Shown here: positions 14,179 through 59,100 of the stretch, piece by piece
Layout of the letters: the number at the start of each line of letters is the position of its first letter
How positions within the stretch are numbered: the first letter of the stretch is position 1
Origin: Nitrospirota bacterium
GTDB taxonomy: Bacteria; Nitrospirota; 9FT-COMBO-42-15; HDB-SIOI813
Length of the DNA stretch: 64,000 nt
NCBI GenBank assembly: GCA_020851375.1
Contig: JADZCV010000044.1
Span: 192,285 to 256,284 of the forward strand
Reading direction: 5' to 3'
Translations under genes and position numbers: made by a program
Notes under the pieces: generated by a model
Seen by the model: the letters and a program-made list of their open reading frames with translations, nothing else
Databases searched by the model: none
Told to the model about the DNA's origin: nothing

Positions 14179-14879
14179 GAGTATCCCCCGTTGATAATGA
14201 CCTCGGCCATCCTGAAATCGAGCGGGGTATTGATGTCAACTGACTCCATCTCGTCCATTATGAAAGGGACGATGAGGTCGCCGGTCGGGGATTTCTTGTT
14301 CCGGATCGTAGCCGGTTTGGTAATATAGATGCTCGCGTTCTGGATGTAGACCGTCGGCAATAGTTGATATGAGAAGGTATGGATATTCGGGTCTTTTCCT
14401 TTGACGAAAGGCGTCAGATAACCCTCTTCCGTTACCCACATCTTGTACGGGTGTTCCGCGCACAGCCGGACCGAGCGGAGGGAGTCCGCCTCAGGATGCC
14501 GCAGCATCTCTTCGATAGCCCTGTCAATTGTCTCTGTTCTTCTGAACGGGGACGTGGGATAGAGGAGGACTATCAGGTCAGGCTCATAATTTTCGTTCTC
14601 AAGAAACCAGTCGAGGGCATGTTCGAAAAATTGCATCTCGGTCGAGTCGCTCTGTGAAATCTCAACCGGCCTCAGGAACGGGACATCTGCACCGTATTGC
14701 CTTGCAACGGATGCTATCTCTTCCGAGTCTGTAGTCACGACGATGCGGTTAATATGTCCGGACTTGGCAGCAGCCCCGATCGTATGGGCTATCAGAGGCT
14801 TGCCCCCGAGGGTACGGAGGTTTTTGTTGGCTACCCTCTTTGAGCCAGCTCGGGCTGGGATGAAGGCTAAGATGTCCAC
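14175..14879 (-). CDS. acylneuraminate cytidylyltransferase-family protein (CMP-nonulosonic acid synthetase, NeuA/PseF/LegF-like)
   Basis: ILAFIPARAGSKRVANKNLRTLGGKPLIAHTI N-terminus; 234 aa. GTG start at 14879 immediately after the repeat-borne SD. Confidence 0.75.
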   Translation of the reverse strand: MDILAFIPARAGSKRVANKNLRTLGGKPLIAHTIGAAAKSGHINRIVVTTDSEEIASVARQYGADVPFLRPVEISQSDSTEMQFFEHALDWFLENENYEPDLIVLLYPTSPFRRTETIDRAIEEMLRHPEADSLRSVRLCAEHPYKMWVTEEGYLTPFVKGKDPNIHTFSYQLLPTVYIQNASIYITKPATIRNKKSPTGDLIVPFIMDEMESVDINTPLDFRMAEVIINGGYS

Positions 14880-15106
14880 CTGAAAATAACTCCTATCTGT
14901 GTGTCATTCCCACGGAATGTGTCCCCGCAGGATTTAAGCGGGGAGTGGGAATCCAGAACCAGACCCAGGTCTGGATTCCCGCTTTCGCGGGAATGACGTT
15001 TTCATTAAATCCTGCAGGGACAGGTTCCGCGGAAATAACGTTTTTCATTACACCTTGTGAGCCCTGAGCTGTGGGCCTGCCGAACAGCCGAAGGGCTCAT
15101 CGCGCT
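14880..15106 (-). repeat. composite palindromic intergenic repeat, copy 1 (leader + hairpin + core + module C)
   Basis: Contains aggag-N10-GTG leader, ccccgcaggatttaagcgggg hairpin, nested palindrome gtcattcccacgg...gggaatccagaacc...ggtctggattccc...cgcgggaatgacg, and gtgagccctgagctgtgggcctgccgaacagccgaagggctcat palindrome. Confidence 0.85.
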
Positions 15107-17023
15107 TCACTTATAAATCCTCTCAGCCAGAGACGCCCCGTCCACCCGGTGATATTTCAGAACCTCCTGTGGCGTCCCCCAGACAGGGTAGTCGTCTATG
15201 GCGATTTTATCGTATCGCCTGCCTCTCAGTTTTTCTGATTCGTTCAATTTATTAAGCAGGGAATCGCCCAATCCGCCGCGGGAGAAGTGATTGTCCAGAA
15301 CATAAATAACGCGGCATCCGCCGACAACCCATGCAAACCATTCTTTGTCCACACGGTTCAGCCAGGGCATATTGACAACCTTCAGCGAAAAACCCTTCTC
15401 ACTCAATAACTCTGATGCAAGGAGCGCTTCATTTAACATCACCGGGCCGTAAGCAAAGAGCACGGCATCCCCTCCATCCATCAGGACAGTTCCCTTCCCC
15501 ATCTCAAACCTGTAATCTTCGGGAAGGTCTATCTTTCGCGGAGAGGGCGAGATGGCAAGTCTCATCATGCAGTTCTCCTTTGTCCTGTTGACGCTCCACT
15601 CAAGGACTGCCTTGGTCTCCTGACTATTGCCTGGTTCCATTATGACAAAGTTCGGCAGGGCAGCAAAAAGGGATATGTCCCTCAGGCTCTGGTGCGACTT
15701 GCCGGGGCCTGCAGGGATCAGGCCCGCGTAATGGCATACATAGATTATCTTTGTCCCCTCTGTAGCATTATTGTATATCTGCTCATTGGCCCGTGAGGAT
15801 AGAAAGACGCCGAATGAATTGACGACCGGTAGAAGGCCCTGCAACGCAAGCCCTCCGGCCATGGAGACCATGTCCTGCTCTGCTATCCCGTTCTCGATGA
15901 AGCGGTCCGGAAAGGCCGTCTCAAAGGGGCGCAGTCCGCAGTCAGCAGACAGGTCGGCATCAAGTACAACAATATCCTCTCTCCCCTTCCCTGCCTCTAC
16001 CAGCGCCTCACCGAAGGCAGTAACTACCTTCTCTGCAGTATCCTTTAGCCTGGTCCTGTTCTTCTCCCTTGTCTCAACCACTTCAAGGGACAGAGGTTCC
16101 ATGCTGCATTTTTTGAGATCCGTGTTGATCCTGTCGAGTACCTCCTGCAAGCCCCTTTCATAGGCATCATCATCCGGGGCGCCTGAATGCCAACGATAGA
16201 GTCCATTCCCCTCTTTCAATGAGGCCGGCCCCTCCATAAAGGAAATCCCCTTACCCTTGACAGTGTCTGCAATCAGGAGTTTTGGCTTATCTGAAATACT
16301 GCTCAACTTGCCAAACACCTTGTCCATGGCAGCAAAATCGTGCCCATCGCACCGCTCCACATGCCATCCAAAGATCTGAAACTTCTTCCCGATGTCGCCG
16401 AGGTTTATGATCTCTCCCACAGGCTTGTCTGTCTGAATCTTATTATGGTCAACGATCACCGTGATATTGCATATCTTCTGATGGGCTGTCGTCTGCAGGG
16501 ACTCCCAGATCTGCCCCTCCTGGAGTTCTCCGTCTCCGGTCATCACAAAGACTCTTCCCCCGGACCCCTGCATCTTCCTGGCCCAGGCCATCCCCTTCCC
16601 CTTCGATATCCCCATCCCGAGGGAGCCGGTGTTAGCCTCCATCCCAGGAATGCTCACATCAGGGTGGCCGTCTAATCCGCCAAGGCGCCTTAATTTTAGA
16701 AGGTGATCCCATGAGAGGATGCCGGCGGCAAAGAGTGCTGCATACTGACCTGGACAGTCGTGCCCCTTCGATGAATAATAGATGTCCCTGTCAGGGCTGC
16801 TGAGGCCTGCCTTCACTGTGTTCAGCTCGTCGAAGTAGAGCATCACGTTGATGTCCAGGGCGCTCAGGCTGGAGCCCAAGTGGCCCGAGCCTGCCTTTTT
16901 CACGGCTGACAGCGCATTGATACGGCACATGTCGCTGACAATCCGCAGTTTCCAAAACTTATCTGACCTTGAGTTCCATACCCGCTGAAATTCACTGTAT
17001 GGAATAAATGAAATGTTCAGCAT
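15107..17023 (-). CDS. transketolase-family protein, fused N-terminal (TPP-binding) and C-terminal (pyrimidine-binding) subunits
   Basis: SGHLGSSLSALDINVMLY and GDGELQEGQIWES (TPP site) in the N-half; FIENGIAEQDMVSMAGGLALQG in the C-half; 638 aa. Confidence 0.75.
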   Translation of the reverse strand: MLNISFIPYSEFQRVWNSRSDKFWKLRIVSDMCRINALSAVKKAGSGHLGSSLSALDINVMLYFDELNTVKAGLSSPDRDIYYSSKGHDCPGQYAALFAAGILSWDHLLKLRRLGGLDGHPDVSIPGMEANTGSLGMGISKGKGMAWARKMQGSGGRVFVMTGDGELQEGQIWESLQTTAHQKICNITVIVDHNKIQTDKPVGEIINLGDIGKKFQIFGWHVERCDGHDFAAMDKVFGKLSSISDKPKLLIADTVKGKGISFMEGPASLKEGNGLYRWHSGAPDDDAYERGLQEVLDRINTDLKKCSMEPLSLEVVETREKNRTRLKDTAEKVVTAFGEALVEAGKGREDIVVLDADLSADCGLRPFETAFPDRFIENGIAEQDMVSMAGGLALQGLLPVVNSFGVFLSSRANEQIYNNATEGTKIIYVCHYAGLIPAGPGKSHQSLRDISLFAALPNFVIMEPGNSQETKAVLEWSVNRTKENCMMRLAISPSPRKIDLPEDYRFEMGKGTVLMDGGDAVLFAYGPVMLNEALLASELLSEKGFSLKVVNMPWLNRVDKEWFAWVVGGCRVIYVLDNHFSRGGLGDSLLNKLNESEKLRGRRYDKIAIDDYPVWGTPQEVLKYHRVDGASLAERIYK

Positions 17024-18559: not shown

Positions 18560-18645
18560 CCTTTCGCATCGTCATTCCCACGGAAGTGGGAATCCAGAAC
18601 TATGCCCGCATTCTGGATTCCCGCTTGCGCGGGAATGACGGGTCC
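18560..18645 (-). repeat. palindromic repeat, copy 2 (core module only)
   Basis: cgtcattcccacggaagtgggaatccagaactatgcccgcattctggattcccgcttgcgcgggaatgacg between the ALDH start and the SDR stop. Confidence 0.85.
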
Positions 18646-18647
18646 GC

Positions 18648-19457
18648 TCACCAGCAACTGAATCCACCGTCAATGATCAGGTTGCTACCTGTCATATAGG
18701 ACGAGGCGTCTGATGCAAGAAACAATATTGCACCGTTGTATTCATCCTGCCCCGCCATGCGGCCGAGGGGAACCTTGTTGCTGTAATTACTGAGAAAGGT
18801 CTCATCCTGATTGTTAAAGACACCACCGAGTGTCAGCGTATTCACCCGGACGCCGCTCTTCGACCAGTAGGTCGCAAGATACTTCGTAAGGTTGATGACT
18901 CCACCCTTGCTGACCGCATAGGTGACTGGTTTAAAAAACGGTTTTTCCCTGTACTCATATATCCTCTGGTCCGGCGACAGTATCCCGTAGATTGACGAGA
19001 TGTTGATAATTGACCCGCCGCCCGATTTTGCCATATGGCCTCCGATCACCTGACAGCACAGGAAGGTCCCTTTCAGGTTTACATCCATCATTATACTCCA
19101 CGATGCCTCGGGATAGTCCTCGAATGGGCCGGTCTCCTGCTCATCCGCGTTCGGCGGTGCGTCTATGGCGGCATTGTTGATCAGAATCCCGGGGTCCCCG
19201 AACGTGGATATGACCTTCTCCAATCCCTGTTCAATTGATTTCCTGTCAATGATGTTGACTTGTACCAGGAGCAGTTTGTCTGAAACAATCTCACTGAGCC
19301 TCCCCTTTGGATTGCCGGGATTGAGATCAAAAGCGGCCACAGAGGCGCCTGCGCCAAGAAGGGCGCGCACATATTCCCCACCGAGCTGCCCGGCCGCGCC
19401 GGTAACGATGGCTACTTTGCCGGAGAGGTTAAATAGCTTGTCAATTATTTGTTTCAC
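18648..19457 (-). CDS. SDR-family oxidoreductase
   Basis: GKVAIVTGAAGQLGGEYVRALLGAGASV Rossmann motif; YAVSKGG catalytic YxxxK; GTG start preceded by repeat-borne GGAG. Confidence 0.8.
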   Translation of the reverse strand: MKQIIDKLFNLSGKVAIVTGAAGQLGGEYVRALLGAGASVAAFDLNPGNPKGRLSEIVSDKLLLVQVNIIDRKSIEQGLEKVISTFGDPGILINNAAIDAPPNADEQETGPFEDYPEASWSIMMDVNLKGTFLCCQVIGGHMAKSGGGSIINISSIYGILSPDQRIYEYREKPFFKPVTYAVSKGGVINLTKYLATYWSKSGVRVNTLTLGGVFNNQDETFLSNYSNKVPLGRMAGQDEYNGAILFLASDASSYMTGSNLIIDGGFSCW

Positions 19458-19787
19458 CTGAAAATGCTCCTATTCACCCTTCATTCCTACCGAACCAGTC
19501 CCCGCATGATTTAAGCACCCGTCATTCCCACGGAAGTGGGAATCCAGAACCAGGCCCACGGTCTGGATTCCCGCTTACGCGGGAATGACGTTTTCATTAA
19601 CCCTGGTGAGCCCTGAGCTGTGAGCTTGTCGAACAGTCGAAGGGCTCATGACGGTTCACCTTAAAATCCCCGTTATTTACCGCAAAGGCACAAAGGACAC
19701 AAAGAATTATATTTCAGATACATCATCCAAAAATGCTCCTATATACCCGTCATTCCTGCCTTCGCGGGGATGACGTTTTCATGATAC
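19458..19787 (-). repeat. composite palindromic repeat, copy 3 (full element plus truncated second copy)
   Basis: Leader acctgaaaatgctcctat, hairpin, core gtcattcccacggaagtgggaatccagaaccaggcccacggtctggattcccgcttacgcgggaatgacg, module C gtgagccctgagctgtgagcttgtcgaacagtcgaagggctcat, a CAAAG-repeat tract, and a second short copy (aaaaatgctcctatatacccgtcattcctgccttcgcggggatgacg). Confidence 0.85.
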
Positions 19788-24311: not shown

Positions 24312-25438
24312 AATATAGCCTCTTTGACCCCTTCGGCGGTATGTTCGGCGCCGTAGTTTCTTATCATTTGCCTGGATGCGTCAGCCATTTTCTGCCTCAG
24401 GCCGTTGTCTGCAGTCATCTTCTTCATGGCATTATATAATTCATGGGGATCACTGTCCCGTACAACAAAACCATTTACACCGTCTCTTACCAGATCAGCC
24501 GATGCCCCCACTTTATCCGTTGTGATTACAGGCAGGCCGGATGCCATCGCCTCGTTGATTACCAGTCCCCAGACCTCTTCATGAGAGGGTAGCAGGAACA
24601 GATCAGCGAGGCCGAAATACCGCGGCAACTGTTCATATTCAACAAAACCTGCGAATACCACATCGTCTATATTTTCCTGAAGGCATCTCTTTTTCATGGC
24701 ATCTTCTTCCATACCAGCGCCGGCAATCAATAATGTCACATCTTTAATATCTTTCTTTAACCAGGAAAATGCAGATAACAGATCATATACCCCTTTTCTT
24801 TCTATCAACTGACCTGCATACAACAAGGCTAATCCTGTCTTTATCCCCAGCTTGAATCTTAATGCCTCCCGCTCCTCAGTTGTCATTCTGGAATTAATTT
24901 CAAAGAAAGAGTTGTCCACTGTATTCCATCCCATGAATATCCTGTCTTTCTCTGCGCCCAGATCCATAAGATATTCCTTTGCCCTCGTCCCATAGGCAAT
25001 ATACGAATCCGAATTCCTTACAAGGTATTTTACAAGAGGCTTGCTAACCGTCCTGCGCCACGAGGGCTCATTGATCGTACTCCCTGACCAGAGGATGAAT
25101 TTCTTATTGTAAATCCTGCAATAGATGTACGCCATGTATGATGCGAGAGAATCCCAGCCGCAGGATACAACGACATCGGGACAGGCATTCTTAAGCTCTG
25201 AAAAGGCCGTGTAATTGATGTGCATGGTGAAGATGTCTTTTCCCTTCATCCTAAACGGTGTGTCTGGAAGGATTTTGTATTTAAATCTCAGGCGGGAGAG
25301 GTCAAATCTCCAGTTCCTGTTCATATCCGTTTCATTCTGAAAGAAGACTGTCAGATTATTATCCAGGACTTCGTTAAGGACATTGAAGCGTTTAATCTCA
25401 TAAGGCGTTATGACATTTTCTATGATTACAATCCTCAC
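24290..25438 (-). CDS. GT4 (group 1) glycosyltransferase
   Basis: EVWGLVINEAMASGLPVITTDKVGASADLVRDGVNGFVV, the E-x7-E GT4 motif region. GTG start at 25438 directly downstream of repeat-borne GGAG. Confidence 0.8.
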   Translation of the reverse strand: MRIVIIENVITPYEIKRFNVLNEVLDNNLTVFFQNETDMNRNWRFDLSRLRFKYKILPDTPFRMKGKDIFTMHINYTAFSELKNACPDVVVSCGWDSLASYMAYIYCRIYNKKFILWSGSTINEPSWRRTVSKPLVKYLVRNSDSYIAYGTRAKEYLMDLGAEKDRIFMGWNTVDNSFFEINSRMTTEEREALRFKLGIKTGLALLYAGQLIERKGVYDLLSAFSWLKKDIKDVTLLIAGAGMEEDAMKKRCLQENIDDVVFAGFVEYEQLPRYFGLADLFLLPSHEEVWGLVINEAMASGLPVITTDKVGASADLVRDGVNGFVVRDSDPHELYNAMKKMTADNGLRQKMADASRQMIRNYGAEHTAEGVKEAILCAASQA

Positions 25439-25557
25439 CTGAAAATGCTCCTATATACCCGTCATTCCTGCGTAAGCGGGAATCCAGACCGATGGCCTGG
25501 TTCTGGATTCCCACTTCCGTGGGAATGACGTTTTCTCTGTCCCTTTTTCTTATCCAT
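25439..25557 (-). repeat. palindromic repeat, copy 4 (leader + core)
   Basis: ctgaaaatgctcctatatacccgtcattcctgcgtaagcgggaatccagaccgatggcctggttctggattcccacttccgtgggaatgacg. Confidence 0.85.
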
Positions 25558-26292
25558 CTAATTTTTTTCTGCCTTGACAATGATGTCGCCTGAAAGAAGA
25601 GAGACCCACCAATTTCTAAGGCTGCTGAAGATACCGGCGCCGGAGACCCCTGTGACCTTAAATCCCTGTTCCTCCAGAAAGACCTTCATCGAACCCACGG
25701 TAAAGTAGTGCAATGTGCCTCCATCCCAGCCTCCGGCGCCGGATGTCCTCGATAAATTGCCGAAAAGAAGGCTTATTCTCCTCGGAAGCCAGGCCATGTT
25801 CGGGACTTCGAGCATCAATACGCCCCTTTTTTTTAAGACACGCCGGAGCTCATCTATAACAAAATACGGGTCATAAATAAGTTGAAACGTCGCAATACAT
25901 GTCACGGTATCAAAGTATCCGTCTGCATACGGCAGTCCCGTATCAATATCCACTACCCGGAAACTGATGTTGGCTTTTGGATGCCTTTCCTCCTTTAACC
26001 TGTTGGCATCATGGACCCTGTTGGAAGCGATATCTATCCCATGCAGTTCTTTAAATTTATCCTTTACCTTAAATATGAATGATCCACCACCGCAGCCCAT
26101 GTCCAGTAATTTCTCTCCCCGCGGAATAAGCCGGGCCACGGCATCTTCCCGATGGAGTTCAAATCGTCTGAATTTATCATAAAGGGCATTTAAAAAAGCA
26201 TCTATGAGATTATACCTCCCCTGATGCAACTGCCCCGTATCCGTCTGATAAATCTTTTCATGAAATCCCTTTTTGCGTTCGGCCTTACCCAT
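25558..26292 (-). CDS. class I SAM-dependent methyltransferase
   Basis: LLDMGCGGGSFIFKV motif I. Start placed at MGKAERKKG (26292); the track start 26331 overlaps the aminotransferase by 47 nt. Confidence 0.7.
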   Translation of the reverse strand: MGKAERKKGFHEKIYQTDTGQLHQGRYNLIDAFLNALYDKFRRFELHREDAVARLIPRGEKLLDMGCGGGSFIFKVKDKFKELHGIDIASNRVHDANRLKEERHPKANISFRVVDIDTGLPYADGYFDTVTCIATFQLIYDPYFVIDELRRVLKKRGVLMLEVPNMAWLPRRISLLFGNLSRTSGAGGWDGGTLHYFTVGSMKVFLEEQGFKVTGVSGAGIFSSLRNWWVSLLSGDIIVKAEKN

Positions 26293-27406
26293 AATGGTTA
26301 ACCTCTTCCGTAATTGTTGATACCTCCGCATCTGTTAACTGGGGAAACATGGGGATGGAGACAATCTCCCTGGCAAGTCTCTCTGCAACAGGAAAACTTC
26401 CTGCCGGACATCCGAGGTCTTTATATGCCTCCTGCAGATGGACCGGCACAGGATAATGTATCGTTGTCTTAATCCCCTTTTCTTCTAAATAACCCTGAAG
26501 CCTATCCCTTTCAGGGTGTCTTATCACGTAGAGGTGAAACACATGCCTGCCATAGCTCATTACAGGAGGTTTTTCAACACGTGGGTTTGTGATCCCGTTA
26601 CTATAGTAGTCCGCAATCTTTCTGCGGCGACTGTTCCAGTCATTCAAATAGTTTAACTTGACCCTCAGGATTGCGGCCTGCAGCTCGTCCAGTCTGCTGT
26701 TGAACCCTTTGATCTTGTGATAGTAGCGTCTATCCTGACCATAGTTCCTAAGCATCTTCAGCCGTTGTCCCTCTCCGGCATCACGCGTCACGATAAGCCC
26801 TCCATCTCCATAGGCGCCAAGATTCTTGCTCGGATAAAAACTAAACGCGGCATAATCCCCCATAGTACCCGCCTTCCGGCCCTTGTACTCAGCCCCGTGG
26901 GCCTGACAGGCATCTTCTATCACCTTCAGACCAAACTCTGTCGCGATCTCAAGGATCGGATCCATATCCGCACACTGGCCATAGAGGTGTACCGGGACGA
27001 TGGCCTTAAGCCTGTTCCCCCAACGCCTCTTCTCCCTCGTAACAACCTCTCTGAGCTGGGCAGGGTCCATGTTGTAACTGCGCGGGTCCACGTCAACAAA
27101 CAGCGGAATCGCCCCTGCAAGACTAATAGCCGAAACAGTGGGCACTGCGGTATTGGGGACAGTAATGACGAGATCGCCATATTCTATACCCGCTGCCACC
27201 AGAGCAAGATGTATGGCCTCGGTACCGGACCCCACCCCCACGGCATGGACATCGCTCCCAAGGTATTTAGCGAATGCTGACTCAAAGCGCTCCCCTTCCT
27301 CACCGAGAACAAACCAACCCTTTTCACACACCCCCCTGATAGCCTGCCCCAGTTCGCCCGTAAGCTCCCGGTATTCCCTGCTCAAATCACCAAACGGTAT
27401 CATCAA
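26285..27406 (-). CDS. DegT/DnrJ/EryC1/StrS-family PLP-dependent sugar aminotransferase
   Basis: MIPFGDLSREYREL... AVGVGSGTEAIHLAL... IVPVHLYGQCADMD... KVIEDACQAHG. Confidence 0.85.
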   Translation of the reverse strand: MMIPFGDLSREYRELTGELGQAIRGVCEKGWFVLGEEGERFESAFAKYLGSDVHAVGVGSGTEAIHLALVAAGIEYGDLVITVPNTAVPTVSAISLAGAIPLFVDVDPRSYNMDPAQLREVVTREKRRWGNRLKAIVPVHLYGQCADMDPILEIATEFGLKVIEDACQAHGAEYKGRKAGTMGDYAAFSFYPSKNLGAYGDGGLIVTRDAGEGQRLKMLRNYGQDRRYYHKIKGFNSRLDELQAAILRVKLNYLNDWNSRRRKIADYYSNGITNPRVEKPPVMSYGRHVFHLYVIRHPERDRLQGYLEEKGIKTTIHYPVPVHLQEAYKDLGCPAGSFPVAERLAREIVSIPMFPQLTDAEVSTITEEVNHYG

Positions 27407-27586
27407 TGATGGCCACCCATTCCCGTCATTCCTGACATCCCCGTCATTCCCGACATTCCCGACATCCCCGTCATTCCCGACATCCCCGTCATTCCTGACA
27501 TCCCCGTCATTCCTGACATCCCCGTCATTCCCGCGGAAGCGGGAATCCAGATCCCTGCATAAACCCTTCGGCAGTTTCCCGCCTTA
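27407..27586 (-). repeat. repeat copy 5: 18-bp tandem array plus terminal hairpin
   Basis: About 6.5 tandem units of ccccgtcattcc[c/t]gacat between about 27419 and 27540, then cccgcggaagcgggaatccag hairpin. The unit is an expansion of the cgtcattcc arm of the repeat family. Confidence 0.85.
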
Positions 27587-27871
27587 AAGAATCTCTTCAC
27601 ACAAATCTCGCCAATCAGGATTCTGCTTCTCTATCAATTCCAGCTTCCAGCTTCTATTCCATTTCTTTATCTGTTTTTCTCTGCTAATAGCCGATTCCAT
27701 ATCTTCATGTAATTCGTAATAGACAAGACGATGAATACCGTATCTTTTCGTGAAACCCTCGACCAAATCATTTTTGTGTTCCCACGTTCGCTTGATAAGG
27801 TCGCTAGTCACTCCAATATAAAGAGTACCGTTTCTCTTGCTGGCAAGGATATAAACCGCTGGTTGCTTCAC
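27587..27871 (-). CDS. GIY-YIG nuclease-superfamily small protein (COG2827/UPF0213-like)
   Basis: VKQPAVYILASKRNGTLYIGVTSDLIKRTWEHKNDLVEGFTKRYGIHRLVYYELHEDMESAISREKQIKKWNRSWKLELIEKQNPDW, the canonical GIY...YIG...R...E...N architecture. GTG start at 27871 preceded by GGAG with 8-nt spacing. The longer track ORF (to 28003) merely translates the upstream repeat. Confidence 0.8.
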
Positions 27872-28113
27872 CTGAAAATGCTCCCATTTACCCGTCATTC
27901 CCACGGAACCTGTCCCCGCATGATTTAAGCGGGAAGTGGGAATCCAGATCCAGGCCTCGGTCTGGATTCCCGCTTTCGCGGGAATGACGTTTTTCTTGAT
28001 CATTTCTGGATTCCAGCTTCCGCGGGAATGATGTTTTTCTTGACCATTTCTGGATTTCCGCTTTCGCTGGAACGACGTTTTCGTGACACCTTGCGAGCTC
28101 GAGGCTCATGACG
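27872..28113 (-). repeat. composite palindromic repeat, copy 6 (leader, hairpin, core, two degenerate core half-copies, module C)
   Basis: ctgaaaatgctcccatttacccgtcattcccacggaacctgtccccgcatgatttaagcgggaagtgggaatccagatccaggcctcggtctggattcccgctttcgcgggaatgacg... then ttccgcgggaatgatg / ttccgctttcgctggaacgacg degenerate arms, then gcgagctcgaggctcatgacggttcacc. Confidence 0.85.
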
Positions 28114-28115
28114 GT

Positions 28116-29117
28116 TCACCAGTACATCGCCCTGTGCTGTCTGTAATATTCAATGGTCTTTAGAAGGCCGTCTCTCAATGTTGTTCCGGGATGCCAGCCT
28201 GTTGTCTCCCTGATCCTGCTTATATCAGGATAGAAATCTCCGGGCTCCTGCGCAGCCCGCTCCCTCGTGAAAGGTGCATATTCCCACCTGCCGCTGCCTG
28301 CAACATCAATGATTGTATTCACAAGCTCCATAAAACTGCAGTTCTCTTCATTACCCACATTAAATGTGCCCCCGAAGGCCTGTTCCGAGGCCCCTGTCTG
28401 CAGGATTGCATCCACACAATCAGCTACATACAGAAAATCCCTGCGTATCTTTCCATCGCCGAATACCTTAATGGTCTCGTCTTCCAATGCCTTTCTCACA
28501 AACCAGTTCACGACCCCGAATTTACTGTGCCTCATCTGGGCCCGCTCGCCATAGATATTAGAGAGCCTCAGGTTGATCACCTTCAACCTGTGAATCTCCC
28601 CGTAGAAATTTATGATCTTCTCTGCCGTCAGGTTGGATATCTCATAAAGCCCCTTTGGGTTAGTCGGCGAACCTTCGCCTGCAGGCAGTTGCTCTGCATG
28701 CCCGTAAACACCACGGGTGCTCGTGTAGACGGTGACCGCCTCAGGGGCCCTTTCACGGATCGCCTCCATCAGTATCGCGGTCCCCCTTATATTGATGTCT
28801 ATATCCGGATACGGATCCACCTGACCAAGGACATGGCTGCACTGGCCTGCCAGATGAAAGATGAAGTCATGGTTCCTCACGAGGGTCTCGACCGCGTACT
28901 TGTCACGTATGTCACAGATGTTGACAGTCAGATCCTTTCGGACCGGATCCACATTATACGGGTTCCCGCCGTGGTCAGGCCACAGGATGTCAAGTACCGT
29001 CACCCTTGCCCCCAATTGCACCAGACGGATGGCAAGATTACTCCCGATAAACCCCAATCCGCCTGTGATTAGAACCTGCTTTCCGTTATAGGCGCTCAAC
29101 TCCTTATGCTGCACCAT
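28116..29117 (-). CDS. NAD-dependent nucleotide-sugar epimerase/dehydratase (extended SDR)
   Basis: VLITGGLGFIGSNLAIRL Rossmann motif; YxxxK region YEISNLTAEK; 333 aa. Confidence 0.8.
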   Translation of the reverse strand: MVQHKELSAYNGKQVLITGGLGFIGSNLAIRLVQLGARVTVLDILWPDHGGNPYNVDPVRKDLTVNICDIRDKYAVETLVRNHDFIFHLAGQCSHVLGQVDPYPDIDINIRGTAILMEAIRERAPEAVTVYTSTRGVYGHAEQLPAGEGSPTNPKGLYEISNLTAEKIINFYGEIHRLKVINLRLSNIYGERAQMRHSKFGVVNWFVRKALEDETIKVFGDGKIRRDFLYVADCVDAILQTGASEQAFGGTFNVGNEENCSFMELVNTIIDVAGSGRWEYAPFTRERAAQEPGDFYPDISRIRETTGWHPGTTLRDGLLKTIEYYRQHRAMYW

Positions 29118-45913: not shown

Positions 45914-47649
45914 TTCTTCTTTTCCCCGGTACTATCCAGGAGGGCCTGAAGACGCACCCTCGTTTCCGCATGTGAGGGGTCCAGGGCAGCGGCATTCTGA
46001 TAGGCACGAATCGCCTCCTCGAACCTCCCCTCCTTCGTGTAGAGCACTCCCAGGTTAAAGAATGGCAGGTAGTTGTTGCTGTGACGCTGTATTGCCTTCA
46101 TAAAGATCTCTTCTGCAAGCCCCGGCCTGTTCTGTTCATAGTATATGATCCCGAGGTCATTATATATCTGCAGATTACCCGGATTGCCTTTAAGCAGATC
46201 TTCCAGTTCAGTGGCCGCAAGGTCCAGTTTCCCCTGGACTATATATATCTGGGCAAGGTTGTGTCTCGCTGTCAGACTCTCCTGTCCATCATGGATCGAG
46301 ATACTTGTGCGCAATGACTCAATGGCCTGATCATACATCTTCATGTCTTTGTATGCAATCCCAAGTCCTGCATGTGCGATGGATGAACCCGGGGCCTTTT
46401 TTACTGTATCTGTCCAGAGGGTCAGGTCATCCCTCCACTCCGTGTTCCGTATAATGGTCACTGCAGAATATGCTGCGCAAAGGGCAATCAAGAGAAACAG
46501 GGCAGCGGCCCGGGACACAGAACTACTCAATTTATCCAGGACAACACCTGCAAACACTGCCATAGTTATTATTGCCAGATATCCCCTGTGCTCCTGCAGT
46601 ATCAGGTTAAGGGGGATAACTGTCGTAGGCAGAAGCACGATAAAAAACCAGAACATGAAGAATGAAACAACCCGCCAGGACGCTGTGGATGACCGGAAAA
46701 GAAGCAGGGCAACTGCAGTATAGACAGAAAGCACAACTGCAGAAAAGATGACTGGAATCGTGACAGTCCTGTAGACCTCCATGTCGTGGACCAGGGTTAA
46801 TGGTATGGGGACAATAAACATCTGCAGATATTTAACAAGTGCAGGAAGTTCCGTAAAAAACTGGGTTACCGGATCCCTCTTAAATGAGTGAGGCGCCCCG
46901 CTGAAGGCAACCCCCCAGACATAGAGATAGGGTATGACCACAATAAGGATAAATGGAAGGTAGGGGGTATATTTGCGCCAGTCCTTTAAGTGGCGCTGTG
47001 CAGGGGTGCGTCGTTCCCGGAGGAGGTATACGTCATATAGCCATAATACGAGGGGAAGGGTGACGGCAGACTCCTTGCTCAGCATCCCTGCTGCAAAGGA
47101 AAGCAGGGATGCAATATAAAAAAAAAGGTTTAGATCCCTCCGGAACCTGACCCAGCAATAAAAGGCAGACAGATAGAAGAAACCGCTCATGACGCTGGAG
47201 CGCGTTGATATGTAATTTACGATCTCTGAGTTGAAGGGGTGGACGAGAAAGATGATGCCTGCTGACAGGGCCGCAAAAAAGGCCGGGGTGGTGAATATGG
47301 CCCGGACTATCAGAAAGAGCAGAAAGGCTGACCCGGCATGAAAGGCGAGGTTGACTATGTGGTATCCTGCAGGGTTTAGACCATTTACCCGGAAATTCAG
47401 TGCATAGGTCAACATCAGGAGGGGCCTGTACGGAGAGCCCCTTTTCATCCCCTCATTGCTGAATGTGGAGGGATCGGAAAAAAGGGAAGATAGCCCGGAC
47501 AGGTCCCGTATACCGGGATTCATGGTGATATGGTGGGCATCATCGTAGTGAAATGGATTGTGTATCGAGTTGTAGTAGAGCAGTCCTGCGATCAGTACAA
47601 AGGAAAGGAAGGTAGTGCAGACTATAACCCGGTTACTGTAACGACTCAT
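45910..47649 (-). CDS. TMTC-like protein (membrane domain + TPR), paralog 2
   Basis: First-loop HNPFHYDDAHHI motif, LVHPFNSEIVNYISTRSSVMSGFFYL block shared with the paralog at 62353, C-terminal TPRs (LGIAYKDMKMYDQAIESL...). Confidence 0.7.
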   Translation of the reverse strand: MSRYSNRVIVCTTFLSFVLIAGLLYYNSIHNPFHYDDAHHITMNPGIRDLSGLSSLFSDPSTFSNEGMKRGSPYRPLLMLTYALNFRVNGLNPAGYHIVNLAFHAGSAFLLFLIVRAIFTTPAFFAALSAGIIFLVHPFNSEIVNYISTRSSVMSGFFYLSAFYCWVRFRRDLNLFFYIASLLSFAAGMLSKESAVTLPLVLWLYDVYLLRERRTPAQRHLKDWRKYTPYLPFILIVVIPYLYVWGVAFSGAPHSFKRDPVTQFFTELPALVKYLQMFIVPIPLTLVHDMEVYRTVTIPVIFSAVVLSVYTAVALLLFRSSTASWRVVSFFMFWFFIVLLPTTVIPLNLILQEHRGYLAIITMAVFAGVVLDKLSSSVSRAAALFLLIALCAAYSAVTIIRNTEWRDDLTLWTDTVKKAPGSSIAHAGLGIAYKDMKMYDQAIESLRTSISIHDGQESLTARHNLAQIYIVQGKLDLAATELEDLLKGNPGNLQIYNDLGIIYYEQNRPGLAEEIFMKAIQRHSNNYLPFFNLGVLYTKEGRFEEAIRAYQNAAALDPSHAETRVRLQALLDSTGEKKK

Positions 47650-48443
47650 GGAGACTTAGCGCACCGGAAGCCCTGATCATAAGTAGTATGCCAGTCAAGC
47701 CCTCTCGTAGCAAGAGAGGACTCAATTGCATAACGGGAAGACGTTCGGGCATAACGATACAGGGGGGTCACGTACGACCCTCCACGCACTGACCTGTAAT
47801 TTCCACTGTAATATCCGTCCGGCAATGTATTTCCAGGATAGGCCTCATACCACCCGCCAGTCCACTCCCGCACATTACCGGTCATGTCATAGACTCCATA
47901 GGGGCTGACATCTTCAGGATAACTTCCAACAGGCGCACTCCATTTTCTACCTGACTCGAGGGTATTTGCCTTCCCTGCAGCATACTCATCCCCCCAGGAC
48001 CAGAGCCTGCCGTCCGTTCCACGGGCTGCCTTCTCCCACTCCGCCTCTAATGGGAGCCGCTTGCCAACCCATGTGCAATAGGCATCTGCATCCATCCAAT
48101 CTACATCAACGACCGGATGGTCATGCTCACCCTTTTCAAAGGTTCCCATCTCAGCCCAGGGAGCCGGGCGGTATACATTGTTTGTTTTAATTAGAAATTC
48201 ATAAAACTGGGCATTGGTGACCTCGTAACGGTCTATGTAAAAATCCTTTACATAAACCCTGTGCCTGGGGATTTCATCCACTCCTATCGTCATACCAAGC
48301 CGTCCTTCAGTTCCGCTGCTCCCCATCTCAAACCATCCAGCCGGTACAAAGACCATATTCTCCGGAGGTGAATTGCCGCGCATATTATACTGATGACTGC
48401 AGCCAAACAGTAGGGTTGCTAAAAGAAAGAGCACAGGAAGCAT
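47646..48443 (-). CDS. FGE-sulfatase (SUMF1/formylglycine-generating enzyme) domain lipoprotein, paralog A
   Basis: Lipobox MLPVLFLLATLLFGC at chosen start 48443 (the track start is 48614). Domain motifs RVYVKDFYIDRYEVTN, YCTWVGKRLPLEAEWEKAARGTDGRLWSWGDE, GVYDMTGNVREWT, RGGSY. Confidence 0.75.
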   Translation of the reverse strand: MLPVLFLLATLLFGCSHQYNMRGNSPPENMVFVPAGWFEMGSSGTEGRLGMTIGVDEIPRHRVYVKDFYIDRYEVTNAQFYEFLIKTNNVYRPAPWAEMGTFEKGEHDHPVVDVDWMDADAYCTWVGKRLPLEAEWEKAARGTDGRLWSWGDEYAAGKANTLESGRKWSAPVGSYPEDVSPYGVYDMTGNVREWTGGWYEAYPGNTLPDGYYSGNYRSVRGGSYVTPLYRYARTSSRYAIESSLATRGLDWHTTYDQGFRCAKSP

Positions 48444-48471
48444 CTTTTGTCTCCTTTCACCGGGAATATCA

Positions 48472-49302
48472 TCATAGACCATCCACAGCACACCGGAATC
48501 CGTGGGCCGGGTGGTCCCACTTTGGGGCAACTGCATGCCTGTAGGCACTCCTCGCAAAGGGCACGGACGGGTTCTCCCATGACCCGCCGCGTAAAACCTT
48601 GTATTTCTCACCAAATGCCTCCCTTTGAAGGGTACTGCCTGGATACGGCTTATACCATGATGATGTCCACTCCATCACACTCCCGGCCATATCGTAAATC
48701 CCGTAAGGGCTCACACCCTCAGGATAACTTCCGGCCGGTGTTGTCCAACCTGCTCGGGCCTCTCTCGTATTTGCCATTATCTTTCCTTCCGGACCAAAAA
48801 AATCATTTCCCCAGGGCCATTGACGGCCATCGGTTCCCCTTGCGGCCTTTTCCCACTCCTCTTCTGTCGGGAGCCTCTTACCAGCCCAACGGCAATAAGA
48901 ATCCGCATCATACCAGGATACGCCCTTCATCGGGTGAGTATCTTCCGGTTCAGGATAAACATTAATATATGACTCAATTGTCCATATCCTCGGGGCCTTT
49001 CTACCCGTGACATCCAAAAACCTCCTGTATTTCTCAACCGTAACCTCGAAACGGTCCATATAAAACCCATTCACATAGACACTGTGCTGAGGGATTTCAT
49101 CTACCCCCACTGATTGGCCAGGGATGCCATCATCTTCCCTGCTGCCCATAAGAAACCACCCTTCAGGTATATACACCATATCCGTGGTGTCTGGAACCGG
49201 TTTCACGCTGCTCACGGTATGAATGCACCCCGCAAGTAAGAGGACCGTCGTAAGACACACTGCAACCCGGCAGTTATTAATGAGCCCTGTCATCTTCCGC
49301 AC
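48472..49302 (-). CDS. FGE-sulfatase domain lipoprotein, paralog B
   Basis: Lipobox VCLTTVLLLAGC. Motifs YMDRFEVTVEKYRRF, YCRWAGKRLPTEEEWEKAARGTDGRQWPWGND, GIYDMAGSVMEWT, RGGSW. Confidence 0.75.
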   Translation of the reverse strand: MRKMTGLINNCRVAVCLTTVLLLAGCIHTVSSVKPVPDTTDMVYIPEGWFLMGSREDDGIPGQSVGVDEIPQHSVYVNGFYMDRFEVTVEKYRRFLDVTGRKAPRIWTIESYINVYPEPEDTHPMKGVSWYDADSYCRWAGKRLPTEEEWEKAARGTDGRQWPWGNDFFGPEGKIMANTREARAGWTTPAGSYPEGVSPYGIYDMAGSVMEWTSSWYKPYPGSTLQREAFGEKYKVLRGGSWENPSVPFARSAYRHAVAPKWDHPAHGFRCAVDGL

Positions 49303-50134
49303 AACGAAAACCTATTCCCCTGTGCCTGTAATCAGGCTTGAAGGTATTGGCCCGGTATGCTGCCCTGCTGTATGGCATGGCCGGCATAACTAACGACCCG
49401 CCCCGTGTGACTTTGTATGTCTCTCCAAAGGAATCCCTCTTAAGGGTGCTCCCAGGGTAGGGGAGGTACCAGGAGCTGGTCCATTCGCTCACATTACCGC
49501 ACATATCATAAACTCCATAAGGGCTTACGTCATCGCTGACACTTCCCGGAGGAAGGATCTGTCCCGGGCCTGCATACCGGGTGTTGCAGGTATGTCCTCT
49601 AAGATCACTCCCCCAGGGCCATTGGCGGCCGTCTGTGCCCCTTGCAGCCTTTTCCCACTCCTCTTCTGCAGGGAGCCTCTTTCCAGCCCAACGGCAGTAG
49701 GCATCCGCATCGTACCAGGTTATATTCGAGACAGGGATGTCTTCAGTTCCTTCTGGCGGGGTGTTGCCTTTCCACGAAGATGCCCCGGGATGTTTATCAT
49801 CAGGCGCTGAATGGCCGGTCGCATCAATGAAGGCCTTGTACTGACGGTTAGTCACCTCGTACCTGTCAATATAAAATGCCTTCAGATATACTGACCGCTG
49901 GGGAATCTCATCCACCCCCACGGACTGGCCCACCAACCCATCCTTCTCAGTGCTACCCATGATGAACTCTCCTGCAGGTACATGCGCCATCTGTTCCTCA
50001 GTCACCGTCTGACCGGCAGATGATGCAGTCACGACCATTCCTGCCAGGAAAACCTGCACTAATAAAAACAATGCGCCTGCCTGCTTCACCTGATTTTCAT
50101 CTGCCTTTGTGAGCCCTGGCTCATGACGGTTCAC
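49277..50134 (-). CDS. FGE-sulfatase domain protein, paralog C (signal-anchor N-terminus)
   Basis: YIDRYEVTNRQYKAF, YCRWAGKRLPAEEEWEKAARGTDGRQWPWGSD, GVYDMCGNVSEWT, RGGS. GTG start at 50134; the first roughly 10 codons lie inside the repeat's module C. Confidence 0.75.
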   Translation of the reverse strand: MNRHEPGLTKADENQVKQAGALFLLVQVFLAGMVVTASSAGQTVTEEQMAHVPAGEFIMGSTEKDGLVGQSVGVDEIPQRSVYLKAFYIDRYEVTNRQYKAFIDATGHSAPDDKHPGASSWKGNTPPEGTEDIPVSNITWYDADAYCRWAGKRLPAEEEWEKAARGTDGRQWPWGSDLRGHTCNTRYAGPGQILPPGSVSDDVSPYGVYDMCGNVSEWTSSWYLPYPGSTLKRDSFGETYKVTRGGSLVMPAMPYSRAAYRANTFKPDYRHRGIGFRCAEDDRAH

Positions 50135-50332
50135 CTGAAAACGCTCCTATTCTCCCGTCATTCCCACGGAACCTGTCCCCGCAGGATTTTTCACCCCGTC
50201 ATTCCCACGCAAGTGGGAATCCAGAACCAGGCCCACGGTCTGGATTCCCGCTTACGCGGGAATGACGTTTTCATGAACCCTGGTGAGCCCCGAGCTCATG
50301 ACGGTTCATCCAAAAATGCTCATGTGTAGCTG
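50103..50332 (-). repeat. composite palindromic repeat, copy 7 (module C inside the CDS N-terminus, leader, hairpin, core, second module C)
   Basis: gtgagccctggctcatgacggttcac + ctgaaaacgctcctattctcccgtcattcccacggaacctgtccccgcaggat... cgtcattcccacgcaagtgggaatccagaaccaggcccacggtctggattcccgcttacgcgggaatgacg ... gtgagccccgagctcatgacggttcat. Confidence 0.85.
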
Positions 50333-56162: not shown

Positions 56163-59100
56163 CTAATACGGTACCAGTAATTCAAATGCGCCGCCAACAG
56201 CCTGCAATCTGATCCAGTAGGCCTTCCATGGCTGCATCACAGGGCTGCAGCGGGTGCCTTGATGCTCTCCTGCCACGTCACTGGCACAGGTCTCAAACGT
56301 ATAATTGATGCCATTGTAGGTATAAATAGACCCATCAAGCCAGTTCAGGGCTGCAACTGCATCCTGGAATGACGCTACCTGCACCTGTCCCTGAACCGTC
56401 CGCCTGACATACAGGCCCTGCTCCCGCTCTTCTATACTGCCATTGCCATTGGCATCTACAGGGCTGAAGTTTGTCTCCTTGTCAAACGGGTTGCCGATCA
56501 TGTTCCATCCACCCTTAATTGATAATGCGTAGCACTCAAAGGCGCCCCCATTATCGTCAGTACAGGTCTCAGTGGAAGACTGAGTTGACGCAGGGGGGAC
56601 ATCAAGCGTGAACTTTCCAGCCGGTGCCCAAAGTAAATATCCGGTACCTTCGCTGACAGAGGTCAGCCTTGAACATGTATATTGTGCCGGATTTGAACTG
56701 AAAGGGCCCGGCTCTCCATCATAACAGCCGCTGTCAAAGTCTGATCCCCTTGAATCCCACCGGTATACCTGCAGCTTATAGTCCGGGGTCACTACGTCAT
56801 CACCAAATACATCCTTAGGTGTATCAGGATTGGGATGATACGGCACAGATATCAGGTTGTATGCATAGGGGGCAAGGGGTGTCATACCCTTTGCCGGCCC
56901 GGTTGAGATAAGGGACCTATGGTCCTCAGCTACTGAGGAGTTCGCATCCGCCCCCCTCTCATCCAGTGCCCTGATAGCAAAATAGAACCTTGTATTCAGT
57001 GTCCTGTCGTCAATCACCCCGCCGCCTGTGTCTATCTTATTCTCAACAGGGACAATGTAGCATTCCTTCATTCCTGGTGTGCGGGGGGCCAAAAACCCTT
57101 CTGCCGGTGCAGCAAGTATTGCATTGGAGAATGGAATCTGGCCGGGACCAGGTGCTGAACTATCAACGACGATCTCTCTCGTGGAATAGCGCATGTCATA
57201 TCCTGTAACAGCCCCTGAGGACATATCTGACCCGTCGTCCGGCGGCGCAGTCCAGCAGAGTGTCATGGTGTCTTTTGACGCATCTGTTACCGAAAGGTCT
57301 GAAATAGCGCCAGGCCTTGTTGTATCATCCGATACGAGCGTGTGTGCCGGACATCCGGAACAGGTCGAGATAGAAGAGACATTGCCTGCATCATCCGTTG
57401 TCTTAAGTGCAATGTAATAATTGGTATTGGCAAATAGCTGCGAAATCGTGCATGACTCAGACTCCCCTGCAGATTTGGGCTTTCCAGGTATACTTTCTCC
57501 GGCTTTACAACTGACTGCCCTGGCCGCCTGTATGAAGTTGCCATCTGTAATAGGGGATGTTGAATACCGCAGGTCATAGTATGCTGCGGTATCACTCATA
57601 CCGTCATCTCCTGGTGACGTCCATGAGACCTTGAAAGAGGTTGCAGTAATATCGCTAATGTCAAGGACTACAGAGGCAGGGGGTGTCGTATCACTACTGT
57701 TGATAACCGCCCTGACTGAATCAACCTTTCCGCTGTCCCCGGTTGAACGAATATCAAACAGGATCGTCTCAGAACCTGAGGTAAATGACGAAGGCGGGGT
57801 AATCCGGAAAGTAAAGAATGGGAACTCTCCCCCGTTATAGTTCGCCGGATTCCCTGCAGTTGCAGTCGGTACATTCACAGGGGAGCTGTACTCAACAACA
57901 CTGCCGTCATTTAGTCTCTCCTGCATCACAACACCCCAACCGCCGGATGGCGTGTTCCAGGAAATAAGATAGCTGTCTGCAATATTCCCTTCATTCTGTA
58001 CGCCAACCGTTATCTCCTTAGATGAGCCGTTTGAGATGTCAAGTGCGGTGCAACCACCGTTGCCTAAACCCAGCGCCCCGTATATGTTGTCCCCGGCCCC
58101 CGCTGTACCACAGCCTGCACCCAAAGTTCCGTAGCCTGAAATAGTACCTCCCGCATTATAACCAAAACCATAGATGACCCCGTCAACTTTGTAGGTCGCC
58201 TTTAAATCGAGGCGGGCCTTGAGCGAGTCCATATATTGTGCAGCGCCGTTAGAATAGATATTGACGTCAATATCTGCTGCCCGGGGCTGGCCTGCCGGAA
58301 TAATTTTTAATGTAAATATCTGTTCAAAATCACTGTGGGGCTGAGACCTTACCGGCGCAGTGGTAAACCCGACTGATGCTGTAATGCCATGATCGCCTGA
58401 ATCGTCACTGATAACTGCTGTCCAGCCAACAGGGAGAGGGTTTCGGAGAGAGAGGGTATAGGTATCCGGAACATTCCCCTCATTTTGCAGGGTAATAGTA
58501 TATGAGATGCTGTCCCCTGGCCCCGCCTCCTTAATCTGGGACGTGCCACCTCCTCCGGTGCGGGCCGGGTCATACTGGTTGTTTCCATCTCCGTCAATCA
58601 GGCCATCCGCCTGATAAATACTGTTGATTTGTGTGGCTGCCCGGATAGAATCTACCTTCGCATAATCATTTTCCGAGCGGAGATTAACGATAATGTCCTG
58701 CGTGACAGCGCCCGGGGCATATGCAGAAGGGGTAACCTTCAGTGTATAGGCCTTTTCCGAACCCGCGTTCAGTGATACGGAGGCAGGGGATGTCAGGTCA
58801 GCGTTGCTGTCATTCAATAAGACCGCCCAGTCCCCGGATATATCTGAAGGGGTGTTCCAGGAAATAATAAAGGTATCGTCCACACTCTGAGATGTGCCGT
58901 CATTTTGAACCTGTATATCATACGTAAGCGGCTGCTGGAGCCTGAATCCGGGATCTGCGTTCTTTGAAGCCTCCCCTCCTGCACCTGATCCAAAGGACCC
59001 GTAAGCATTATCACCATTTGCCTCAATGATCAGGTCAGGCTGGTACACACCACTCGCTGTAAAATAGCCGATCCGGCTTTCACGTAAAAACGGGGTCACT

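Follow-up and report, generated by a model that had tools for sequence, protein, structure and literature searches.

The 64-kb window analysed here (64,000 nucleotides of contig JADZCV010000044.1 from a Nitrospirota bacterium) carries a small GIY-YIG nuclease gene enclosed on both sides by blocks of short repeats. The gene is very probably a member of the SsnA family, encoding an endonuclease directed at hairpins of the Neisseria Transformation Sequence (NTS) in single-stranded DNA (ssDNA), and lies in an NTS-ssnA-NTS setting in which the repeats belong to a larger mosaic that would donate translation starts to the genes following it. The nuclease-repeat system as such is already published (Chenal et al., 2025, Nat Commun 16:2388; PMC11893778), and no later literature on the Ssn family was found.

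The NTS, CGTCATTCCCGCGMAVGCGGGAATCYRG, includes the dRS3 palindrome ATTCCC-N8-GGGAAT, and SsnA is a 94-amino-acid (aa) single-domain GIY-YIG protein (CDD cd10448, GIY-YIG_unchar_3) that binds the hairpin in ssDNA only, with the Neisseria enzyme not binding RNA (Chenal et al., 2025). Cutting takes place a few nucleotides upstream (5′) of the hairpin on the NTS strand only and is abolished by each of the substitutions Y6A, Y17A and E64A, and in N. meningitidis SsnA reduces transformation by NTS-bearing DNA (Chenal et al., 2025). Cleavage has been shown for the N. meningitidis, N. elongata, N. wadsworthii and Wolbachia enzymes only, with NTS-like motifs flanking ssnA homologues across bacteria (at least one motif at 71% and motifs on both sides at 42%; Chenal et al., 2025). 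The NTS-ssnA-NTS arrangement was described by the same authors as insertion-sequence-like and similar to RAYT/REP, with domestication proposed and transposition not shown (Chenal et al., 2025).

The open reading frame (ORF) of ssnA in the window has 95 codons, running from a GTG start (27869-27871) through its last codon (27587-27589) to the stop TAA (27584-27586). Pfam GIY-YIG (PF01541) covers residues 5-77 of the 95-aa protein (E = 9e-16) with no further domain found in the Pfam scan of the protein, so that an earlier note on this DNA, which had reported a 94-aa GIY-YIG gene, was right as to the domain and not as to the length. NCBIfam holds no model specific to the protein, and tblastn found no second GIY-YIG gene within the window. 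Compared with the 94-aa N. gonorrhoeae orthologue of SsnA, the window protein shows 67% identity over 93 aa (135 bits), with E = 3e-48 for the pairwise comparison and 4e-36 for a tblastn database search, values inside the E < 1e-10 used in the published work as the criterion of homology for Ssn membership and measured here against the gonococcal orthologue, not the N. meningitidis protein. The orthologue was taken from PLSDB, in which 2.17-Mb N. gonorrhoeae chromosomes are labelled as plasmids (L087, NZ_CP119140.1; also NZ_CP119142.1), the single tblastn match there being an NTS-flanked 94-aa ORF with Y6, Y17 and E64. Residues Y7, Y18 and E65 of the window protein align with these three gonococcal residues and are invariant across 14 homologues from about 10 phyla (alignment A2).

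The core of the repeats is a 28-nt hairpin, CGTCATTCCCGCGnAAGCGGGAATCCAG, that matches the Neisseria NTS consensus, the dRS3 palindrome included. A motif scan of the window found three exact NTS copies, six with at most one mismatch and 13 with at most three mismatches, five of the copies also matching the published degenerate SRM pattern. All 13 are intergenic in a window where intergenic DNA makes up 2.7 kb (4%), and they occupy seven of the 14 intergenic gaps of at least 60 nt. The copies are mostly arranged as inverted doublets with arms about 14 nt apart, which as ssDNA have folding energies between -24 and -29 kcal/mol (z from -7 to -8.6; -28.8 kcal/mol and z = -8.6 for the doublet at 19520-19590), single NTS hairpins folding at -9 kcal/mol (z = -4.5 and -5.5) with none of 200 shuffles folding equally well. 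Two stem subtypes are present, CCCGCG/CGCGGG and CCCACG/CGTGGG, differing by one compensatory pair. Other assemblies of the same population end contigs exactly at or inside the repeats, which suggests that the repeats are multi-copy in the genome, the counts given here being those of the 64 kb. A search of these assemblies for empty sites met with nothing but such contig ends.

The two repeat blocks that the earlier note had placed on either side of the gene were found at 27872-28115 and 27407-27583, filling the gaps to an NAD-dependent epimerase gene upstream (28116-29117) and a DegT-type aminotransferase gene downstream (26285-27406). The upstream block holds three gene-strand NTS hairpins in a 44-nt tandem array together with one inverted NTS that is interrupted in its loop. 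The unit of the array nearest to ssnA is an exact NTS that folds as a DNA hairpin at -9 kcal/mol (z = -5.5), with the two distal copies (28006-28033 and 28050-28077) being degenerate, with three mismatches each. The interrupted copy is made up of a 5′ half (27893-27908), a 23-nt insert (27909-27931) and a 3′ half (27932-27948), and folded together with the adjacent exact NTS gives -29.9 kcal/mol (z = -6.3). In the downstream block a single inverted NTS (27523-27550) is preceded by a 9-nt tandem array of units CATTCCCGA / CATCCCCGT, located between ssnA and the start of the DegT gene on the side of the NTS at which Ssn enzymes cut. The arms 27523-27551 and 27961-27989 form a 97% complementary inverted repeat (I1) that brackets ssnA. 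In three assemblies of the same population (L081-L083) the third unit of the 44-nt array reads CATCATTCCCGCGGAAGCGGG, against CGTCATTCCCGCGAAAGCGGG in the window, reflecting either copy-number polymorphism or assembly ambiguity.

The pairing of gene and repeat extends well beyond the window. Homologues of the protein with 70-91% identity number in the thousands and are found in Nitrospirota, Deltaproteobacteria, Planctomycetota, Cyanobacteria, Bacteroidia, Chloroflexi and other groups, many of them on contigs shorter than 1 kb. In a survey of 80 homologous loci from species-representative genomes, scanned for NTS copies with at most three mismatches, 73 had an NTS within 150 nt of ssnA; NTS copies lay on both sides of the gene in 52 and as a forward copy upstream with a reversed copy downstream in 44. 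The density of NTS was 6.3 per kb beside ssnA and 0.11 per kb elsewhere in the same loci, a 59-fold difference, and the forward NTS stood a median of 15 nt ahead of the start codon. The position of ssnA is common within Nitrospira (L001/3/6/7), Gallionella (L009/15) and Rhodocyclaceae (L033/37/64), and its GC content at third codon positions (GC3) tracks the GC content of the host (r = 0.68, p = 5e-12), so that ssnA appears to be a long-term resident under strong purifying selection rather than a recent arrival.

Partial hairpins are distributed unevenly around intact ones. Across the 80 loci, orphan NTS 5′ halves were found on the 5′ side of an intact NTS 36 times compared with 17 times on the 3′ side, the corresponding figures for the window being six and none, with orphan 3′ halves being rare (7 and 3). 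In the window two direct copies of the 5′ half flank a 23-nt insert (the module termed M3) at 19480-19547, 50158-50224, 27893-27948 and 14904-14955, and orphan 5′ halves are stacked upstream of an intact NTS in other phyla as well (L014, L028, L034, L049 and L077, for example). At four loci (L023, L065, L022 and L014) ssnA sits amid regular tandem arrays of NTS with a spacing of about 33-50 nt, and L065 has in addition a 7-nt expansion (CCCGCTT x 4) within a hairpin.

The NTS copies are embedded in a NIME-like mosaic of short modules (alignment A3). In gene orientation this comprises GGTGA, which holds the stop codon of the gene upstream, a module M1 (ACCGTCATGAGCC, a small hairpin, and then ATGAAAA), a forward NTS, a spacer, a reversed NTS, the optional module M3 with its flanking duplicated NTS half, a leader (GTAnATAGGAGCATTTTCAG) and GTG(A). 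The final module, GGAGCATTTTCAG followed by GTGAA, carries a Shine-Dalgarno site and the GTG. The 16-mer CACCTGAAAATGCTCC from this module occurs exactly at 19455, 25436 and 27869 and with one mismatch at 50132, four matches where 0.12 are expected and a number reached in none of 100 shuffles, with a diverged form of the leader, cacctgaaaataactcc, at 14877. The leader shared with other repeat ends that the earlier note had seen is thereby borne out, as is its placing of the leader beside unrelated genes, Pfam identifying the four others as a cytidylyltransferase, an SDR, a GT4 and an FGE-sulfatase gene. Over 100 nt, the copy before the cytidylyltransferase gene is 92% identical to 27894-27993. 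Three of the genes (cytidylyltransferase, SDR and GT4) have no plausible start other than the GTG of the leader; counted from it, the Pfam domain begins at residue 5 in the cytidylyltransferase and residue 14 in the SDR, and an independent gene call in another assembly places the SDR start at the same GTG. The donated GTG would probably be the start codon in use. At ssnA the M1 module includes the TGA stop (28116-28118) of the epimerase gene. The coordinates of the features are collected in Table 1.

Table 1. Features of the ssnA locus and of the repeat copies elsewhere in the window.
Feature	Position	Strand	Basis or detail
ssnA, single-domain GIY-YIG nuclease gene	27584..27871	-	Pfam and SsnA homology
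Leader module at ssnA	27869..27892	-	GGAG (27881-27884 on + strand, CTCC), 9 nt, GTG
Inverted NTS, loop-interrupted	27893..27948	+	Sequence reading, repeats D3, D5, I4, alignment A3
Upstream NTS, first unit of 44-nt array	27962-27989	-	0 mismatches to Neisseria NTS consensus (motif scan)
Tandem array, three 44-nt units (NTS + 16-nt spacer each)	27961..28092	-	Tandem Repeats Finder period 44, 2.8 copies; also repeat D2 and motif scan
M1 module GGTGAACCGTCATGAGCC (gene strand)	28103..28120	-	18/18 nt same as 19643-19660 and 50118-50135
Downstream NTS, inverted relative to ssnA	27523..27550	+	1 mismatch to consensus; 33 nt past ssnA stop
9-nt tandem array (18-nt period), ~13 units	27418..27533	+	Repeats 5′ part of downstream NTS
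Mosaic before cytidylyltransferase gene	14877..15110	-	M1 variant, exact NTS 14971-14998, interrupted NTS, diverged leader
NTS inverted doublet between aldehyde dehydrogenase and SDR genes	18570..18640	.	Without leader
Mosaic before SDR gene	19453..19660	-	M1, NTS doublet 19520-19590, M3, leader with GTG
Mosaic before GT4 gene	25435..25534	-	NTS doublet 25460-25530, leader with GTG; without M1 and M3
Mosaic before FGE-sulfatase gene	50118..50312	-	Variant leader, M1, NTS doublet 50197-50267, M3, leader, further M1

The sharing of a leader between ssnA and unrelated genes had been taken in the earlier note as a possible mark of descent, in which the repeats would derive from a GIY-YIG-bearing parent and the short copies would be its deletion derivatives. 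Neither proposal was supported. The block upstream of ssnA is homologous to the other copies between 27993 and 27867, GTGAA included, and no further, and a BLAST search with the whole unit found no fragment of ssnA coding sequence elsewhere in the window, for which reason deletion from a GIY-YIG parent was rejected for the leader-bearing copies. Likewise, a leader ancestral to ssnA was rejected, the leader being present with at most two mismatches in none of the 80 other ssnA loci, where NTS is followed after about 15 nt by ATG AAA CAG CC, the window gene beginning GTG AAG CAA CCA. Conversely, seven metagenome contigs (L088-L094; WBZO01..., FWPU01...) carry the same mosaic of M1, NTS doublet and leader before unrelated sequences, always ending in ...GGAGCATTTTCAGGTGAA (GGAGCrTTTTCAGGTGAA). 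What follows the leader differs between them, being a BirA-like ORF starting at the GTG in L089, a pilin-like ORF starting 6 nt later in L093, a gene with its own ribosome-binding site in L091, another M1 module in L090 and L094, and nothing in L088 and L092. Because the homology stops at GTGAA, no other ssnA locus has the leader and the metagenome mosaics share it, the leader is shown to be the terminal module of a local mosaic and not a relic of the nuclease gene. The simplest account would be that the mosaic came to abut genes whose start is now its terminal GTG(AA), ssnA being one of five recipients. The alternative raised at the same time, that the repeats had captured the leader, was nearer the mark, the leader going with the repeats rather than with the gene. 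The broader link between repeat family and GIY-YIG gene stands, through the exact NTS copies, the identity to SsnA and the pairing seen in the survey.

Several of the mosaics have GGTGA at both ends (28116-28120, 50130-50135 and 19655-19660), contributing the upstream TGA stop at one end and the downstream GTG start at the other. A reading of GGTGA as a 4-5-nt target-site duplication, made where stop and start codons overlap, suits the epimerase/ssnA gap and the internal junctions and does not suit the ends at 15107, 19788, 25558 and 50333, and is not claimed. Between two mosaics, at 19670-19705, lies a low-complexity intergenic motif, ccgcaaaggcacaaaggacacaaag, beside a variant of the leader, GGAGCATTTTTGGATG, with ATG at its end.

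By homology with the Neisseria and Wolbachia enzymes, the 95-aa protein is predicted to bind the folded 28-nt NTS hairpin in ssDNA, on the NTS strand only, and to cut a few nucleotides 5′ of it. Single strands bearing NTS that arise from uptake, transfer, replication or repair would then be trimmed, and since nicking 5′ of the folded NTS shortens such strands, the readiness with which NTS-flanked genes recombine would be altered. The last module of the mosaic would in turn supply a Shine-Dalgarno site and GTG start to whichever gene follows, ssnA included.

A number of points weigh against this interpretation. The activity attributed to the window protein is carried over from its homologues, and, the host being uncultured, the role described in Neisseria, that of restricting transforming ssDNA, may not transfer to it. 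The forward NTS stands 90 nt from the start codon of ssnA, the canonical distance being about 15 nt. Finally, the plus-strand NTS copies have A/T in place of G/C at one stem pair, and since changes of stem sequence that kept the pairing led to loss of activity of the N. meningitidis enzyme (Chenal et al., 2025), some of the copies in the window may be non-substrates.

RAYT transposases are thought to mobilise REPIN doublets, and a comparable account of the window, in which the GIY-YIG nuclease mobilises the repeats and spreads the NTS doublets and mosaics as non-autonomous copies, is the alternative that best survives, albeit an unlikely one. In its favour ssnA is bracketed by inverted hairpin repeats, as in RAYT/REP and insertion sequence elements, the doublets share the polarity of the ssnA unit, the repeats are numerous enough to break short-read assemblies at NTS with many homologues confined to contigs below 1 kb, and the partial 5′ halves accumulate on the Ssn cutting side both in the 80 loci and in the window. 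The same hypothesis was raised by the authors of the Ssn study, with no transposition demonstrated in the literature (PMC11893778). Set against it, the window has no second ssnA and the other repeat copies no ssnA coding fragment, while synteny within genera and the tracking of host GC by GC3 indicate long residence and not recent jumping. The two NTS of the canonical unit, moreover, are on opposite strands such that no single strand would be cut at both ends. The hydrolysis of DNA by GIY-YIG nucleases involves no covalent intermediate, and strand transfer would for this reason need host functions.

A related and still more tentative proposal is that the Ssn nuclease, besides acting on NTS-bearing strands, may drive the growth and spread of the NTS mosaic, with the GGAG-N9-GTGAA module letting the mosaic sit inside operons. 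Under this proposal, repeated cuts made immediately 5′ of the hairpin and then repaired with slippage or template switching would give rise to the 5′-half duplications, the 9-nt and 44-nt arrays and the doublets, and the terminal module would let the mosaic lie between the packed genes of an operon by supplying a ribosome-binding site and start. If true, the system would parallel the RAYT/REPIN partnership without an HUH enzyme, and would carry its own device for tolerance within operons.

It is improbable that the mosaic repeats are only expression elements of a long operon, donating ribosome-binding sites and forming mRNA hairpins, with the nuclease gene among them by chance. Such a view would account for the five leader modules being co-directional with the genes and all ending at start codons, for the GGAG-N9-GTG spacing, which is a normal initiation geometry, and for the strictly intergenic position of the repeats. 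The pairing of NTS with ssnA, however, is not incidental, because the 73 of 80 loci that show it come from unrelated phyla and lack the leader, and in the metagenome contigs the leader sometimes precedes no gene or a gene with its own ribosome-binding site. Nor do RNA-level features speak for it, the Neisseria enzyme not binding RNA, no Rfam family matching the repeats and no T-run following the hairpins on the transcribed strand; a scan for promoters and terminators found nothing promoter-like, and the one hairpin resembling a terminator was on the strand that is not transcribed.

That the protein is another kind of GIY-YIG enzyme unrelated to the repeats, either a free-standing homing endonuclease of the I-TevI type or a housekeeping protein of the UPF0213/YhbQ type, is effectively refuted and scarcely credible, the only matches in its favour being weak (TIGR01453, for group I intron endonucleases, with 22 bits where the cut-off is 56; PHROG 314, homing endonuclease, E = 2e-4; PDB 1ZG2, E = 0.003), with no DNA-binding extension, intron or phage context, and with phage homologues at most 37% identical compared with 67% for Neisseria SsnA. 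Membership of a defence system or of the phage homing endonucleases was likewise set aside, the matches being marginal, and phmmer matches in PDB to WD40 propellers (2YMU, E = 2e-10), which had no passing stretch, were disregarded as probably the sum of weak matches to a repetitive protein.

The window as a whole is a long cluster for glycan biosynthesis and export, with all large ORFs on the minus strand and including GT2, GT4, methyltransferase, ABC-2 exporter, NeuB, cytidylyltransferase and DegT aminotransferase genes, and the repeats thus lie, as in Neisseria, around genes for surface structures. A Pfam scan of 45 ORFs in the window, part of it at default or 1e-5 cut-offs and for 30 ORFs only at E <= 1e-12, found no transposase or integrase. 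Other repetition is present in the coding DNA of the cluster. Three ORFs in tandem at 47646-50134, spaced about 810 nt from one another, have repeat families D5 and D9 in common and look paralogous, the third being the one with the FGE-sulfatase domain, and a 1779-aa ORF at 56163-61502 contains internal DNA repeats with spacings of 324 nt and 501 nt (families D3, D10, D18 and D20).

On the favoured reading, that of an SsnA-family nuclease and its NTS repeats, annotation as a probable NTS-directed ssDNA endonuclease is appropriate for the small GIY-YIG protein, with the repeats labelled as the hairpins it recognises. Two observations go beyond the published account (PMC11893778), namely that the terminal module of the mosaic in this Nitrospirae lineage appears to give several unrelated genes their Shine-Dalgarno site and GTG, and that partial 5′-half hairpins and tandem arrays pile up on the cutting side of the enzyme. 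Both the start-donating module and the 5′-side partial copies bear on how such repeats multiply and are tolerated within operons. The presence of the repeats in a surface-glycan cluster here, and around surface-protein genes in Neisseria, suggests that these repeats may be tied more generally to recombination at variable surface loci.

Among known systems, GIY-YIG proteins of other kinds bear a marginal likeness to the window protein. The UPF0213/YhbQ type, represented by BH0048 (PDB 1ZG2), is matched at E = 0.003 and 21 bits as compared with 135 bits for Neisseria SsnA, and the GIY-YIG homing endonucleases I-TevI and I-BmoI share the catalytic fold and a link to selfish or repeated DNA but differ in having a C-terminal DNA-binding domain, in cutting double-stranded DNA and in being associated with introns and phage, none of which applies to the window locus. 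NIMEs of Neisseria are intergenic arrays near variable surface genes in which ATTCCC-N8-GGGAAT hairpins (dRS3) alternate with short RS modules. The window hairpins likewise alternate with other short modules, but M1, M3 and the leader are lineage-specific and the leader would supply a ribosome-binding site and start codon; no description of a module of this kind in NIMEs was found in the papers searched.

The RAYT/REPIN systems (REP, BIME), derived from IS200/IS605, resemble the window in having a single-copy nuclease gene between inverted hairpins with long vertical residence, an enzyme that recognises an ssDNA hairpin (predicted by homology for the window protein) and dispersed intergenic inverted doublets, here at 18570-18640, 19520-19590, 25460-25530 and 50197-50267. 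They differ in that the window enzyme would be a GIY-YIG hydrolase acting without a covalent intermediate and not an HUH Y1 transposase. Closest of all is SsnA/NTS of Neisseria. Here the differences are that the window derives from an uncultured metagenome-assembled genome named 'Nitrospirae bacterium', that the forward NTS has been pushed to 90 nt from the gene by an extra inverted NTS and the leader, and that the NTS copies are mainly inverted doublets, of two stem subtypes, in a mosaic ending in a Shine-Dalgarno site and GTG. In common, the two have a GIY-YIG protein built of one domain, 94-95 aa long and sharing its catalytic Tyr, Tyr and Glu, the same 28-nt hairpin, the inverted NTS-gene-NTS layout and intergenic repeats clustered around genes for surface structures.

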